A stretch of 63,646 bases of DNA, counting the filler, from Chrysochromulina tobinii (taxonomy: Eukaryota), in the NCBI GenBank assembly GCA_001275005.1. It is 8 parts of 8 records of this genome, joined end to end, with 100 filler letters (N's around TTAATTAATTAA, not from the genome) between each part and the next. Parts side by side here need not be neighbours in the genome. Positions count along the whole stretch, not along the records: positions 1 to 13,410 come from JWZX01000643.1; 7 more parts are not named here. One strand, written 5' to 3'. Within the stretch, counting starts at the first letter, position 1. Every line of letters starts with the position of its first letter. The notes under the pieces are model-generated. The model was not told the origin of the DNA, made no database searches, and saw only the letters and a program-made list of their open reading frames with translations. Of this stretch, positions 6,896 to 60,929 are shown one piece after another. A program made the translations under genes and the position numbers.

Positions 6896-8292
6896 TCTCG
6901 CCGCCCTCTCCGCCGCAGCCGCCGCGGCCTGGCGAGTGCGCACCTGTGGGGAAGGGCGAGGCGCCGTGGCGAGCACTTGCATGCGAGTGCACAGCACGGC
7001 CCGGCGAGTGCACAGCACGGCCGGGGCTGCCGGTACGTCCTCCCCCGCCAAGCGTCGCGTCCGCTCGCAGAAAGGCCGCCAGGGCAGTCACCTCCCTCGC
7101 CGCCTGTGTGGCGGCCTCGGCCGCCTCGACCGCATCCTTGGCCGCCGCCTCCGCCCCAGCTACCGATCGGTTGGTGGCGACGGTGAGCGCCGTGGTGAGC
7201 GCCGGCGAGGCGCCACAGGAGACATAAGGGGTCGACGGGCGCGCGTATGGTGGCGAGCGAGCCGAACGGCGACGAGCGTTGTCGTCGTCGTCGTCACTGT
7301 CGGCGTCGTCACTGTCGTCCTCGTCCTCGTCCTCGTCCTCGTCGCCCTCGATGCTGTTGCCGTCCTCGACGCCTAGAAAGTCCTCCGAGTACGGCGGAGG
7401 GCGCGCGAGCAGGCGCGTCGCAACCGCCGTCGCCGCATAGGATCGCTCGAGCACCTGTGGGGAAGAAGAGAGAGCGCCGTGGTGAGCACGTGCATGCGAG
7501 GCCCATCTTCGGTTCAGCGGCCGAGAGGGCGCCGTGGTGAGCACATGCATGCGAGGCGAGGGCCATCTTCGGTTCAGCGGCCGCTCGAGTACCCGTTCGG
7601 CGAGCGGCGACCGAAATTGATGGGTCAGTGCAGCACGCTCGGGCGGCGCCGGTAAGGCGAGCGCCGAGGTGAGGCGAGCGAGCCGCAGCTCATTCGCGTC
7701 GGAGCGTCCCAATCGACGATCGAGATCGGCGTGCGGCTCGATGAGGGCGTCGAGGCGCTGTGGGGAATCGAGGCGTAGCCCCATCACCTGATGAGGGAGG
7801 CAATTGGTGGCCATCAGCGGACATCATCAAGGGGCAATCAAGTTCCCTGATGAGGGAGGCAATTACCGAAGCGGGCGATGGCTCTTCACAAGGCGTCGAG
7901 CTGGGCGCTTCGGCCTTCCACAGCGGCGGCGTCGGCGTCGTGCTGGTGAAGCGCGAGCGCGTGCCGGTGGAGGCGCCGGTGGAGGTGGCGGAGGAGGTGG
8001 AGGAGGAGGTGGCGGTGGAGATGGCGGACGCGCCGGAGCGCCGTGTTGAGCTGGATCCCGCCTTAATCGCAGCTGACTCGGCGGGCTCCGGCGGCGCTGG
8101 TGTGAAGGCTCTCGCTGGTGTGAAGGCACTCGCGGCTGTGGGGGTGGCGGCTGTGGGGACGGCGACGACAGCAGCGAAACGGCCGGGGGGGCTTGGCGGA
8201 AGATCGAGTGGCGCTGGCCGGCGCCCGCCGCCACCGCCGCCGCCGCCGCTGCTGCCGCTGCTGCCACCGCTGCTGCCGCTGCTGCCACCGCT

Positions 8293-8323
<31 letters not shown>

Positions 8324-9237
8324 CGGCTGCTGCTGGCCGAGGTGCTCGCGGCGCGAGCGGACGTAGCGCCGGCGGCCCGGGCGGTGGCGGCATGGGAGCA
8401 CGTGGAGGGCGCGGAGGCGGCGAGATATGAGCTCGAGCCGGCGCGCCGAAGCTGCGACCGATGTGACGAAGCTGACGAAGCGCCGGTCGGGCGGCGGCGA
8501 CTCGGCGTCGCACGGCGCACCGCCGCGGCGGAAGCTTCTTTGGAGGACGACGCTGACGAAGCTGACGAAACGGAGGCTGCTTTGGAGGAGGAGGAGGTCC
8601 ACGAGGCGGCGCGCACGAGGCGATGCACGATGCGGAGCTGCTGCTCCGAGCCAGGCGAGGAGGCGGTTGACGTGGCCGCACGAACAGCGCCGTGTTGAGC
8701 GCCCCCCGAGGCGCGAGGGCGGAGCTGCTGCCGCACGTGGGCCCATTTTGAGGTCGAGGTCGAGCGGTCCGTCGAGCGATCGGTGGAGGAGCGGTCCGTG
8801 CTCGGAGCCGGCGGCGAGGCGGGCACCTCGAGCACGCAGCCGCACAGAGGCTCGAGCGCGAGCCGAATATTCTTGAGGTGCATCGGCTTCGCATCGCACA
8901 GCTGAGCGAGTGCCGCCTCGACCTCGCGGTAGATGCCGAGGTCCATGTGCTCCAGGTCGTCCGAGTCCTCGACGCCCGCCGCCTCGAAGGCCACGGCGAA
9001 GCGCGACGCGTACCCGGGCTTGATGCCCTCGAGCCACTCCTTGAGCGAACGCTGCTGCTCCATGGAGCGCGCGCTGTGCTCCACCTCGCCGCCGCCAGTC
9101 GGGTTGTCGGTCAGCTGGCTCACGGTGAGCTCGTCGATCCAGCTCTCCTCCGGGCGAGGAGACGTGATGTCGGCGGGCGCGGCCTGGCCGCCCTTTGCGC
9201 CGTCGGCCATCGCGGGCAGCCAGCTGAACATCTGCAT
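5362..9237 (-). CDS. Multi-exon low-complexity protein with an N-terminal SAM-like domain and C-terminal coiled coil
   Basis: SLKEWLEGIKPGYASRFAVAFEAAGVEDSDDL..KPMHLKNIRLAL resembles a SAM domain. ORFs 7690-9288, 6564-7814 and 5362-5910 can be joined through GT-AG introns (7866-7788, 7592-7455, 6070-5890 and others). Confidence 0.6.
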
Positions 9238-9437
9238 CGTCAGGTTACAGGGAGGATGCAGCGACGCGGAAGGAACACTCCTAGTCAAGTCAAAAAGTCA
9301 AGCATGTCAAGTCAAGTCAAGACTTGACATGTTCCTGCGAAACTGGTTGGAACAGTAAGATCGCTTTTTCGCTACGACTGAAGCCAAGTCAAAAGAGACA
9401 AGTCAAGCCTTGTGATGGAAAACTCCGCAAGCAACCA

Positions 9438-11630
9438 ATGAAGCGACGTCGGTTCGGCGTCGCCGGCGGCGGCGACGTCAACGGCGGCGACGACGGCGAT
9501 GTGAGGGTGCGAAGCGCCGAGGGCGAGGTGGTCGCGTGGTCCCGTTTGGCCGCGGCGCGATCGGCGGCGCTCGCCAACTGGGTGAGCGACACGGGCGGCG
9601 CCGAGGGGGCGTTCTCCACTCTGGTGCCTGCGGCTGCGCTCCGCACGCTCTCGCGCGTCGCCGAGGGCGGGGCGGAGGATGGCGGGGCGCTGGAGGGGTG
9701 CTCGCTCGCGCAGCTCGCGCAGCTGTTGCATGGCGCGCACTTTCTCGACGTGGACGTCGAGCTTCTCCGCCTCCTCTCGCGTTCCCTGTGCACTGGCCAC
9801 CTCGCCGGCAAGAGTGGCCCGGAGCTCGGGCGGCTGCTGGGCGTCAAGAGCGACTTCCCCACCGAGGCGGAGCGGCAGGCGGCGACGGAAGAGCCGATCT
9901 TCACGCATGACGCTCAGGACGACGCCATCGCTCCCGGAGCGGCGAGCTCCGACCTTAGACACCTTAAGATTGGCAACGTGGTCATTGAGTTGCCACCATC
10001 GGCGAAGGTCACCTACGGCGAGGGCGGACGCGCCGAGCTGCACCTGAACGCCTTTACTGGCAGTCTGACCGTCTTGCCGACGGCGGCCTCGATGTCCGTC
10101 AAGCGTGCTTCCGATGCACCCACACCGCCACCGCTCGTGTGCTGGCTCTCGACACAGCTCGTCAACGAGGACGCCCTCGAGGACGCCCTCGCAGACGCTG
10201 ACGTGCCGACGCTGTGTGCACTCAAGGGCGTGAGCCTCGCGTGGCGCGCGCGAGCGCGGCGCGTCCTGTGCGCGCGGCTGTGCGCACGCGTCGGCCTGCC
10301 GCTCACGAGCAACCTCGTCGAGGTGACCAAGCTCGACCTCTCGGGCAGCCGCGCCGCCGGTCGCCTCTTCGCCGACGCGGTCGACGCATCGCGCTGGCTG
10401 CCCAACCTGGCAAAGGTGACGGGGCTGGGCGGTTTCGAGGTGGACGTGGCCGCGCTGAGGAGCGTGGAGTCTTCGGATGAATCGGAAGAAGATGAAGAGG
10501 GTGAAGAGGGTCCGCCGCTGTATCCGATGGCAGGGGTACGCGCGTGCATCCGCGGCGAGGGCGAGGTGTCGATGGAGGTGCTGCTCGCCGCGTGCGTGCT
10601 GCGCGACGGTGAGGCGCACGTGCCGGCGAACGCGTTCCGCGACGACACATCGATGACGTCGATCGCGCTGCCCGCCGGCCTCACGAGCATCGGTGAGAGC
10701 GCCTTCGAGGGCTGTACCTCGATGACTTCGATCGAGCTGCCCGCCAGCCTCATGAGCATCGGTGAGTACGCCTTCTATGGCTGCTCCTCGATGACATTGA
10801 TCGAGCTACCCGCTGGCCTCACGAGCATCGGTGATTATGCCTTCCGTGGCTGCTCCTCGATGACGTCGATCGAGCTGCCCGCTGGCCTCAGGAGCATTGG
10901 TGATGGCGCCTTCATTTCCTGCTCCTCATTGACGTCGATCGAGCTGCCCGCCGGCCTCACGAGCCTCGGTGAGTACTCCTTCGAGGGCTGCTCCAGGTTG
11001 ATGTCAATCGCGCTGCCTGCCGGCCTCACGAGCATCGGTCAGTGCGCCTTCTGGGGCTGCTCCTTGATGACGTCGATCGAGCTGCCCGCCGGCCTCACGA
11101 GCCTCGGTGAGGGCGCCTTCATGAACTGCTCCTCGTTGACGTCGATCCAGCTGCCCGCCAGCCTCACGAGCATCGGTGAGTGCGCCTTCGAGGGCTGCTC
11201 CTCATTGACGTTAATCGAGCTGCCTGCCGGCCTCATGAGCCTCAGGCAGTAAGCCTTCAATGACTGCTCCGCGTTGATGTCAATCGAGCTGCCCGCCGGC
11301 CTCACGAGCCTTGGTAAGGGCGCCTTCCAGGGCTGCTCCTCGTTGACATCGATCGCGCTGCCCACCGGCCTCACAAGCATCGGTGAGTGGGCCTTCGGTG
11401 GCTGCTCCTTGATGACGTCGATCGCGCTGCCTGCCTGCCTCACGAGCATCGGCTATGAGGCCTTCCGTGAATGCTCCTCGTTGAAGTCGATCAAGCTGCC
11501 CGCTGGCCTCACGAGCCTCGGTGAGCTCGCCTTCTTTGGCTGCTCCTCGTTGGCGTCAATTGAGCTGCCCGCTGGCTTCTATGACAGCATTCTCAAATCT
11601 GCTGCAGTGCCTCCCAGCGCCATCCTTTGA
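9438..11630 (+). CDS. SKP1-like + F-box-like + BspA-type LRR (LRR_5) fusion protein, with an in-frame TAA at 11250-11252
   Basis: VRSAEGEVV..LLHGAHFLDVD..AGKSGPELGRLLGVKSDFPTEAE (SKP1-like); EDALEDALADADVPTLCALKGVSLAWR (F-box-like); about 14 repeats of 23 aa LTSIxLPAGLTSIGxxAFxxCSS. Confidence 0.8.
10620..11580 (+). repeat. 69-bp coding tandem repeats (BspA LRR units)
   Basis: Recurring ctgcccgccggcctcacgagcatcggtgag..gccttc at 69-bp spacing. Confidence 0.95.
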
Positions 11631-12127
11631 ATGAGCTGCTGCCGGCCTCAAAAGTTGAGCTGCTGCCGGCCTCATGAGCATTGTGGACTGTGCGGTGCGC
11701 ACGGATCAACTGCAACTGAGGTCAACACATCCCAGGCGTGCCTCGTACAAACTGTACACACCAGCTACGCTTTTCCACGACGCACGAAACCCACGAATAC
11801 ACACGCGCATCTCCACGCACAATAAAACAAGACTGTTCCGCCTAGCTATACTATAATACCCCTATACCGCAAAATCGCACTGGTGCGTCGGTCGAGTCGC
11901 ACCGAGCGGAAAGGCGGTGTTAAACGCTTGGTCTGGGGGGTGAGGTTTGTATTCAGTGTCTCGCTGCAAGCAAGCTAATTAGTCGAAACACACAAGTCCT
12001 AAACCTTGCTTGTTTGCTTGCTTGTCTCGCTTAAAAGCGTCCTCGTGGGCGGATGCCGAAAAAACGACGCAACTTTTCTTTTGGGCACGAAAGCCGTGGG
12101 ACGAAGGCCTCCCAGCAGCGACCCAAT

Positions 12128-13410: not shown

Positions 13411-13510
13411 NNNNNNNNNNNNNNNNNNNNNNNNNNNNNNNNNNNNNNNNNNNNTTAATTAATTAANNNNNNNNNNNNNNNNNNNNNNNNNNNNNNNNNN
13501 NNNNNNNNNN
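13411..13510. other. Artificial contig linker N-TTAATTAATTAA-N (also 22790-22889, 31967-32066, 35141-35240, 43971-44070, 56997-57096, 60830-60929)
   Basis: Seven 100-nt N blocks, each with the same six-frame-stop palindrome at the centre. Confidence 0.98.
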
Positions 13511-22647: not shown

Positions 22648-22943
22648 CCCGCGCTGATGCCGTCGGCGCAGGGGCGGTCACGGCTTGGCGGTGTGTGAGC
22701 TCGCTGCTGCTGCTGTGAAACACACACGCGCACAACCTCCGGACCCCCAAGCACGAGGGCCTCTATCGCTATGGACGGAGGTGTGGCCGNNNNNNNNNNN
22801 NNNNNNNNNNNNNNNNNNNNNNNNNNNNNNNNNTTAATTAATTAANNNNNNNNNNNNNNNNNNNNNNNNNNNNNNNNNNNNNNNNNNNNCCCCTCCCCCC
22901 ACCCACCCACCGCTCCTCCCCCCTCCCGATGCTCCTACTGCAG

Positions 22944-31966: not shown

Positions 31967-32086
31967 NNNNNNNNNNNNNNNNNNNNNNNNNNNNNNNNNN
32001 NNNNNNNNNNTTAATTAATTAANNNNNNNNNNNNNNNNNNNNNNNNNNNNNNNNNNNNNNNNNNNNTCGCCACCGCCACCTTCTCC

Positions 32087-35140: not shown

Positions 35141-35240
35141 NNNNNNNNNNNNNNNNNNNNNNNNNNNNNNNNNNNNNNNNNNNNTTAATTAATTAANNNN
35201 NNNNNNNNNNNNNNNNNNNNNNNNNNNNNNNNNNNNNNNN

Positions 35241-43970: not shown

Positions 43971-44070
43971 NNNNNNNNNNNNNNNNNNNNNNNNNNNNNN
44001 NNNNNNNNNNNNNNTTAATTAATTAANNNNNNNNNNNNNNNNNNNNNNNNNNNNNNNNNNNNNNNNNNNN

Positions 44071-56996: not shown

Positions 56997-57294
56997 NNNN
57001 NNNNNNNNNNNNNNNNNNNNNNNNNNNNNNNNNNNNNNNNTTAATTAATTAANNNNNNNNNNNNNNNNNNNNNNNNNNNNNNNNNNNNNNNNNNNNCGCC
57101 GCCCTCGCCGCCGCCACCCCCCTCACCGCCGCCCCTCTCGCCGCCACCGCCGCCATCGTCGCCGTCACCGCCGCCGCCGCGACCGCCCCTGCCCTCGCCA
57201 CCGCCGTGACCGCCGCCATCACCGCCACCGCTGCCGCCGCCACCGCTGCCGCCGCCACCGCCGCCACCGCTATCGCCTTTGATGCCTCCCGTCC

Positions 57295-60829: not shown

Positions 60830-60929
60830 NNNNNNNNNNNNNNNNNNNNNNNNNNNNNNNNNNNNNNNNNNNNTTAATTAATTAANNNNNNNNNNNNNNN
60901 NNNNNNNNNNNNNNNNNNNNNNNNNNNNN

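Follow-up and report, generated by a model that had tools for sequence, protein, structure and literature searches.

A gene at positions 9438–11630 of a 63,646 nucleotide stretch of DNA from Chrysochromulina tobinii (assembly GCA_001275005.1; the whole stretch, filler included, is called the window here and positions count along it) very probably carries a SKP1-like domain, an F-box-like motif, a linker domain and an array of BspA-type leucine-rich repeats (LRR; Pfam type LRR_5) in one polypeptide chain. The gene and all of its features lie on the plus strand. This copy is interrupted by a premature stop codon. Its intact paralogues are read here as one-piece substrate receptors of the Skp1-cullin-F-box (SCF) type; the probability of the full mechanism, every functional step of which we infer, is put at about 0.5. 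To our knowledge, all SCF ligases described so far keep the SKP1 adaptor apart from the F-box receptor, as subunits that can be exchanged. The literature searched yielded no account of this family or of a SKP1/F-box fusion occurring in nature, although domain-architecture databases or the supplements of genome papers could mention one.

SKP1-like domain and F-box-like motif

The N-terminal segment, amino acid (aa) positions 20–156 (9495–9905), is a divergent SKP1 domain comprising the POZ part and the C-terminal helices. With the single sequence, a phmmer search of solved structures ranks two SKP1 chains first, with E-values of only 0.62 and 2.2, and the protein stays below the curated Pfam cut-offs for Skp1_POZ (PF03931) and Skp1 (PF01466). 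Family profiles searched against PDB show homology over the full length of known SKP1 proteins. With a profile of 18 family members, SKP1 is the sole non-LRR family among the best 60 matches (best E-value = 6.5e-4). A profile of the N-terminal part of 12 close and mid-distance relatives gives 28 matches at E-value ≤ 10, every one of them a SKP1 orthologue; the best (E-value = 7.2e-4) aligns profile positions 25–154 with positions 11–159 of ASK1. When 44 diverse relatives, this protein included, are gathered by an exhaustive search of cluster representatives, the top 33 matches of their profile are SKP1, with E-values from 2e-18 (69.7 bits) to 4.4e-7 and profile positions 9–143 aligned to SKP1 residues 3–147. 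Elongin C follows far behind (E-value = 0.08–1), and no BTB protein is present among the PDB matches of this profile.

The predicted fold gives the same assignment. In the AlphaFold2 (AF2) model of aa positions 1–397, the predicted local distance difference test (pLDDT) is 80–92 at positions 20–150 and poor elsewhere (mean 64.9). All Foldseek matches listed for this model are chains of SKP1 complexes, with a target-normalised template modelling score (TM) of 0.58–0.75 and 18–23% identity over approximately 131–160 alignment columns. VIA-align, which was run against 48,161 representatives, places SKP1 highest: SKP1 chain 1ldk_D has Z = 11.7 (root mean square deviation (rmsd) 2.5, 111 residues aligned) and yeast Skp1 Z = 11.0. 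ASK1 (Z = 9.7) aligns over 132 residues, model positions 20–156 with chain positions 4–160. Generic BTB domains lie below SKP1, with Z ≤ 10.1. Thus a BTB/POZ core together with the SKP1-specific C-terminal helices is found by AF2, Foldseek and VIA-align, and BTB proper is neither the closest fold nor the closest sequence family.

More distant relatives connect the family to the Pfam models directly. Among 73 relatives scanned out of 150 listed, Skp1 is found in 18 at E-value ≤ 0.01, two of these being above the curated cut-off, and Skp1_POZ in three, one of them above the cut-off (P0182, 35.1 bits). At E-value ≤ 1, Skp1 is found in 27 of the 44 aligned members. SKP1 homology is regarded as established, with the domain very diverged in this branch. 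The initial annotation of the window had proposed a SKP1-like POZ and dimerisation region here, to be given up if neither profiles nor structures supported it; both kinds of support are found (E-value = 2e-18 with family profiles and Z = 11.7 for SKP1 with the AF2 fold).

The F-box-like motif occupies aa positions 238–290 (10149–10307). AF2 models predict three helices, at approximately 244–253, 256–264 and 267–284, with pLDDT 65–80. The motif is nearly invariant among family members, and its position directly N-terminal to the repeats is that of the F-box in canonical receptors. Some relatives start it with "LP.EL", a start typical of F-boxes. The closest approach to a Pfam cut-off is in P0158, where F-box-like gives 23.0 bits (E-value = 6.9e-5; cut-off 24.3) at a site that directly follows the Skp1 match and precedes ankyrin repeats. 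For Pfam F-box the E-value is 0.0039 in P0237 and 0.014 in one of 18 close relatives, and at E-value ≤ 1 over the 44 aligned members, F-box-like and F-box are each found in two. The broad profile of the 44 relatives finds the GID2 F-box at an E-value of about 1. A profile centred on the motif gives nine PDB matches at E-value ≤ 10, five of which align through their F-box (mouse C85627, E-value = 0.075; GID2 three times, E-value about 0.1; FBXW21, E-value = 1.8); the other four are LRR proteins of the ribonuclease inhibitor (RNI) type, aligned on the repeat part.

Selection and predicted structure bear on the motif as well. The ratio of nonsynonymous to synonymous substitution rates (dN/dS), from 78 pairs among 13 paralogous copies, is lowest in the F-box-like motif (0.13), followed by the SKP1-like domain (0.36), the linker domain (0.67) and LRR units 1–4 (0.80), values that gene conversion between paralogues may distort and, in the LRRs, also the alignment of non-equivalent units. 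The N-terminal module is under purifying selection. In VIA-align, CUL3 adaptors with BTB plus 3-box/BACK span the model from approximately position 18 to 245–282, with 125–145 residues aligned: SPOP 3htm_A (Z = 7.2, 125 aligned, 18–263), 4j8z_B (Z = 6.4, 145 aligned, 18–282) and KBTBD2 8h3f_I (Z = 9.8, 18–251), where the Z values are modest and each range gives the first and last aligned residue only. Since these matches reach the F-box-like helices, the helices in the model would lie against the SKP1-like domain much as the 3-box lies on BTB. The low dN/dS, the position and the VIA-align extents indirectly favour a real docking motif, and positions 238–290 may be a true F-box. Because no match exceeds a curated threshold (Pfam PF00646 and PF12937), the segment is called F-box-like and is not filed as a member of the F-box family. 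The initial annotation's F-box-like motif is thus retained as a conserved three-helix segment with several weak but agreeing signals, all of its F-box matches being below threshold.

A conserved alpha/beta linker domain, aa positions 291–397 (10308–10628), connects the F-box-like motif to the repeats. It is conserved over the superfamily whatever the C-terminal domain, and pLDDT is mostly 86–94 in the second AF2 model (aa positions 225–604). In paralogue L018:3836–5857 this domain is deleted and the F-box-like motif directly abuts the LRRs.

Repeat array and superfamily

The BspA-type array extends over 10650–11576, where a 69-bp unit is repeated 13.4 times according to Tandem Repeats Finder and 14 units with "LP" are counted in the translation, nine before the TAA at 11250–11252 and five after it. 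Membership in Pfam LRR_5 (PF13306) is clear, with 242.1 bits against a cut-off of 27.7 (E-value = 1.3e-72). The initial estimate of about 14 LRR_5 units thus agrees with the count and with Pfam for the array as a whole, but the TAA truncates it after about nine. The model of positions 225–604 is confident (mean pLDDT 85.5, predicted TM score 0.80), and both VIA-align and Foldseek find bacterial BspA-type solenoids closest to it, e.g. 4fs7_A (Z = 25.6, rmsd 1.6, 214 aligned) and TpLRR 6mlx_A (Z = 24.2). Variation within the repeat unit is focused: in 669 LRR units from 88 proteins, positions 10, 11 and 14 show an entropy of 2.9–3.8 bits and most scaffold positions ≤ 1.1 bits, not counting positions 1, 2, 13 and 16, which are fixed by the search pattern, and 5, 8 and 12, which are restricted by it. 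As the initial annotation had stated, there is no signal peptide; neither this nor a membrane segment is seen in the Kyte-Doolittle 19-residue mean, which has a maximum of 0.33 over the first 25 windows and of 1.45 anywhere.

The module of SKP1-like domain, F-box-like motif and linker domain is the constant part of a superfamily and is joined to varying domains, among them LRR_5, RNI-type LRR and ankyrin. A word-indexed search with the N-terminal part finds 109 clusters at 90% identity. An exhaustive search with the N-terminal profile finds 381 representatives of 50% identity clusters at E-value ≤ 1e-3, of which 200 are at ≤ 1e-10 and 81 at ≤ 1e-30, and many of the 381 cover both the SKP1-like and the F-box-like parts. 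All relatives that carry an organism name are from Chrysochromulina, either C. tobinii or the C. parva "OHIO" genome. The ESM Atlas gives no usable match, and in viral contigs 86 pattern matches to the family yield no confirmed member.

In the 73 scanned relatives, Pfam places RNI-type LRR_6 at the C-terminal end in 19, LRR_5 in three, weak HEAT in two and ankyrin in one; another one has a SNF2 helicase behind an F-box-like start only, and 26 have no Pfam match whatsoever. BRCT, PFU or SAP additions occur occasionally. Chrysochromulina is also the source of the LRR_6 branch, whose annotation as "nlrc3" or "nod3" follows its repeats; the names that relatives bear in public records come from the repeats alone. 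The three-part fusion of the initial annotation is not confined to this gene: hundreds of relatives show it too, with differing repeats at the C-terminus. The proposed count of paralogues and of C-terminal domains gives 381 clusters at 50% identity and, among the 73 scanned relatives, LRR_6, LRR_5, ankyrin, HEAT and SNF2.

Most paralogues at 18 metagenome loci are intact single open reading frames (ORFs) with 9–18 LRR units. Some are arranged head-to-tail with genes approximately 500 bp apart, three in L008 (1–5656) and two in L009 (1646–5932). Synonymous divergence between copies is low, about 0.1, so that the copies are either young or homogenised. Some called proteins begin at the F-box-like motif and have no SKP1-like part, which may be genuine or may result from calling genes on short contigs. 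One of these, P0090, shows a fragment of the SKP1-like C-terminal helix inside its LRR array; from its sequence this looks like a scar of recombination between family members.

Premature stop and insertion in the window copy

The reading frame starts at an ATG at 9438, with the family-typical MKR, and ends at a TGA at 11628–11630. It is interrupted by an in-frame TAA at 11250–11252, inside LRR unit 9 of 14, where the other units have Tyr or another residue. The initial annotation had taken 9438–11630 as one ORF encoding one polypeptide and missed this stop; the ORF proper consists of 604 codons plus the TAA (9438–11252), and the homologue P0001 (601 aa) has the same end. The cut-off remainder (11253–11630) comprises 125 open codons, contains five LRR units that are still recognised as LRR_5 (Pfam E-value = 3e-31), and terminates in a tail matching the C-terminal tail of intact paralogues. 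No frameshift is found and the frame is otherwise intact on either side of the TAA.

The same TAA is present in a second assembly of the locus, L001 (99.6% identity over 7,979 bases), and the database protein P0001 terminates at the identical residue. RNA-library contigs span the TAA with no mismatch or joint (X2 at 11091–11311; X3 and X4 at 11214–11308). Since the stop is common to L001, P0001 and the RNA-library contigs, it is not an assembly slip. An intron over the TAA was considered and rejected: a GTAAG is present at 11249, but no acceptor was found that restores both the frame and the repeat register, and the RNA-library contigs bridge the site unspliced. This copy is atypical: a nonsense codon deprives it of the conserved tail and of the last five among its 14 LRR units. 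Its product may be at most a shortened receptor, and pseudogenisation may be under way.

The copy also carries an insertion between the SKP1-like domain and the F-box-like motif, at aa positions 164–233 (9927–10136); most of the 109 homologues align to positions 1–163 and 234–397 only. By BLASTP among these homologues, the core of the insertion, positions 169–225 (9942–10112, approximately 57 codons), shares about 90% identity with the N-terminus of the unrelated proteins P0106/P0108. Thus the insertion is a captured piece of another gene, and it looks as if the first part of that gene's coding region was taken up in frame. Pfam finds no family for the insertion itself or for the donors P0106–P0108, and AF2 pLDDT is below 50 over the insertion. 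RNA-library contigs carry the insertion unspliced and mismatch-free (X1 at 9860–10184, X3 at 9863–10165, X2 at 9894–10119). An intron at 9927–10136 was rejected too, as GT..AG borders are absent and the contigs bridge it unspliced. In paralogue L002:3551–6079 a different insertion of approximately 50 residues is found at the same position between the two domains, and this connecting segment seems to be an insertion hotspot.

Differences between the window and L001 are clustered. Sixteen substitutions and a 9-bp indel within 9615–10567 make up 25 of approximately 31 differing columns in the 7,979-base alignment, and no differing column falls in the LRRs of this gene. The clustering suggests exchange with, or gene conversion from, paralogues.

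Contigs of all four RNA libraries tile the gene, the insertion and the stop included, and P0170, a relative with the module and LRR_5, derives from a transcriptome. Positions 9312–9415 and 11912–12100 are not covered by RNA contigs, which proves nothing. The upstream neighbour (7690–9288, minus strand) is a long low-complexity ORF with Gly/Ser/Ala runs and no Pfam match at E-value ≤ 1e-5; its 5′ part (9000–9277) is covered by RNA-library contigs. The window resembles the usual nuclear DNA of a eukaryote with high GC content; the domains found in it are CH, SH3, ankyrin, filamin, exostosin and enhancer-of-rudimentary. At each of seven places, 13411–13510, 22790–22889, 31967–32066, 35141–35240, 43971–44070, 56997–57096 and 60830–60929 there are two 44-base runs of N with 12 bases between them; these are regular blocks of masking or gap, not biological sequence.

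Proposed function and comparison with known systems

In the proposed mechanism for the intact paralogues, the SKP1-like domain would be the site of cullin binding, and the F-box-like helices would fill the F-box groove of the SKP1-like domain in the same chain, for which the usual length of the connecting segment, approximately 25–30 residues, would suffice. The hypervariable LRR face would hold a target for ubiquitylation, and the targets may be variable and intracellular, possibly viral. The recurrence of the module with different C-terminal repeats and the three variable positions per LRR unit fit receptors for variable intracellular targets. The receptor reading put forward in the initial annotation is in part sustained, namely by the fusion, its recurrence and the LRR variability, but the F-box matches are sub-threshold and the copy from which it was drawn carries a stop and an insertion.

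Several results weigh against this mechanism. Pfam Skp1, Skp1_POZ, F-box and F-box-like give no match in this protein even at E-value ≤ 10, so that of the HMMER comparison proposed initially only the LRR_5 part is positive (E-value = 1.3e-72). In the family as a whole, F-box matches fall short of curated cut-offs and of significant E-values, both in the Pfam scans and with the motif-centred profile against PDB. Fold searches with the model of positions 225–604 are dominated by LRR proteins and barely probe the F-box part; FBXL2 appears only at Foldseek rank 30 (E-value = 7.3e-4, TM 0.16), which is uninformative. The dN/dS values are open to the distortions named above, and the RNA-library contigs are no strict proof of transcription. 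With a premature stop common to two assemblies and a foreign insertion, the window copy is perhaps non-functional. Finally, SKP1/F-box pairs also work outside SCF ligases, as in CBF3 and RAVE, so that cullin binding is not a necessary property of a fused module.

This last point leads to an alternative in which the module stands outside the SCF pathway and merely holds the LRR for sequestration, signalling or assembly, comparable to Skp1-Ctf13 (CBF3) or Skp1-Rav1 (RAVE). The divergence of the SKP1-like domain beyond Pfam detection in this protein and the presence of non-SCF Skp1 complexes among the PDB matches (CBF3 entries 6fe8 and 1nex) agree with such a scaffold. However, the SKP1 domain is kept in its entirety, with the POZ part that forms the cullin surface in SKP1, and purifying selection acts on it (dN/dS = 0.36). 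A module followed by LRR, ankyrin or HEAT is also an arrangement that parallels canonical F-box receptors; a cullin-independent role is considered unlikely. It is also doubtful, although compatible with receptors at the level of the family, that the locus is a decaying pseudogene copy whose transcripts are noise. The TAA shared with the second assembly, a foreign insertion of 58–70 codons with low model confidence, the intactness of most paralogues examined and the concentration of 25 of the approximately 31 inter-assembly differences in 9615–10567 would all suit decay. Against it, neither flank of the stop shows a frameshift or other break in the frame, the product of 604 aa retains the full N-terminal module and 8–9 LRR units, nine being a number also found in intact paralogues, and RNA-library contigs cover the gene.

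Two further alternatives are weaker. A Chrysochromulina parva virus reportedly codes for six F-box proteins (PMC12085832). The SKP1-like domain could then bait foreign F-box proteins, e.g. of giant viruses, or the F-box-like motif could titrate host SKP1, in either case with no degradation of a target, and a large and variable family might be expected of such inhibitors. Yet a decoy has no need of hypervariable LRRs, a same-chain F-box-like motif would compete with the foreign F-boxes, and no relative is found in viral contigs, all of which make a decoy quite improbable. Even less credible is a role as adhesin or surface antigen of the BspA-like kind, the one that public records assign to relatives ("surface antigen-like protein"). 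The LRR_5 fold is indeed nearest to bacterial cell-surface proteins and the relatives bear names of this kind in their sources, but these names rest on the repeats alone, the protein has no signal peptide or membrane segment, and an N-terminal SKP1 domain is a cytosolic/nuclear fold. SCF-type receptors remain the preferred reading of the intact paralogues.

If this reading is correct, the family size, the tandem arrays, the focused LRR variability and the host, a bloom-forming alga with known giant viruses, would make the family a candidate repertoire of innate defence. A wider proposal is that hundreds of one-piece SCF receptors give Chrysochromulina an immune-like repertoire, in which a self-docked module on CUL1 would present LRR, ankyrin or HEAT sensors that send giant-virus proteins to the proteasome, the sensors being hypervariable and diversified by tandem arrays and gene conversion. 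Taken as a whole this is speculative and on balance improbable. Exchange of SKP1/F-box pairs (CAND1 cycling) is central to SCF regulation, and one-piece receptors, if they exist, would raise the question of how they exchange on the cullin. They would also offer compact natural templates for engineered degraders.

Among known systems, FBXL-type SCF receptors with SKP1 (SKP1-SKP2 and ASK1-TIR1/COI1/GID2) share with this family the SKP1 fold and sequence family and an F-box-like motif placed directly before a linker and an LRR solenoid, and many relatives here have LRRs of the RNI-type LRR_6. In contrast, adaptor and receptor form one polypeptide here and two in the described SCFs, the repeats of this branch are BspA-type LRR_5, the F-box match is sub-threshold and cullin binding is putative. 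The BspA-like LRR_5 proteins (Bacteroides BACOVA_04585, 4fs7; Treponema TpLRR, 6mlx; the Trichomonas and Entamoeba BspA families) have the same repeat type, but they are secreted or surface proteins with no SKP1 or F-box part, whereas this protein lacks an export signal. In plants and nematodes, F-box families that are expanded and evolve fast consist of many paralogues, in which the ligase-docking end is conserved and the substrate end varies. The present family resembles them in paralogue number and in both ends, the difference being that SKP1 is a separate protein there.

The CUL3 BTB adaptors (SPOP, KLHL/KBTBD, KEAP1) combine, as this protein does, a cullin-adaptor fold and a substrate domain in one chain, and their VIA-align matches cover the SKP1-like domain together with the F-box-like helices (KBTBD2 8h3f_I, Z = 9.8; SPOP, Z = 7.2). 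They differ in that the closest fold and sequence here are those of SKP1 (Z = 11.7 versus ≤ 10.1; E-value = 2e-18 versus no BTB match), and the partner here would be CUL1. A natural family that welds SKP1 to an F-box would, if the reading holds, be the CUL1 counterpart of the one-piece CUL3 BTB adaptors.

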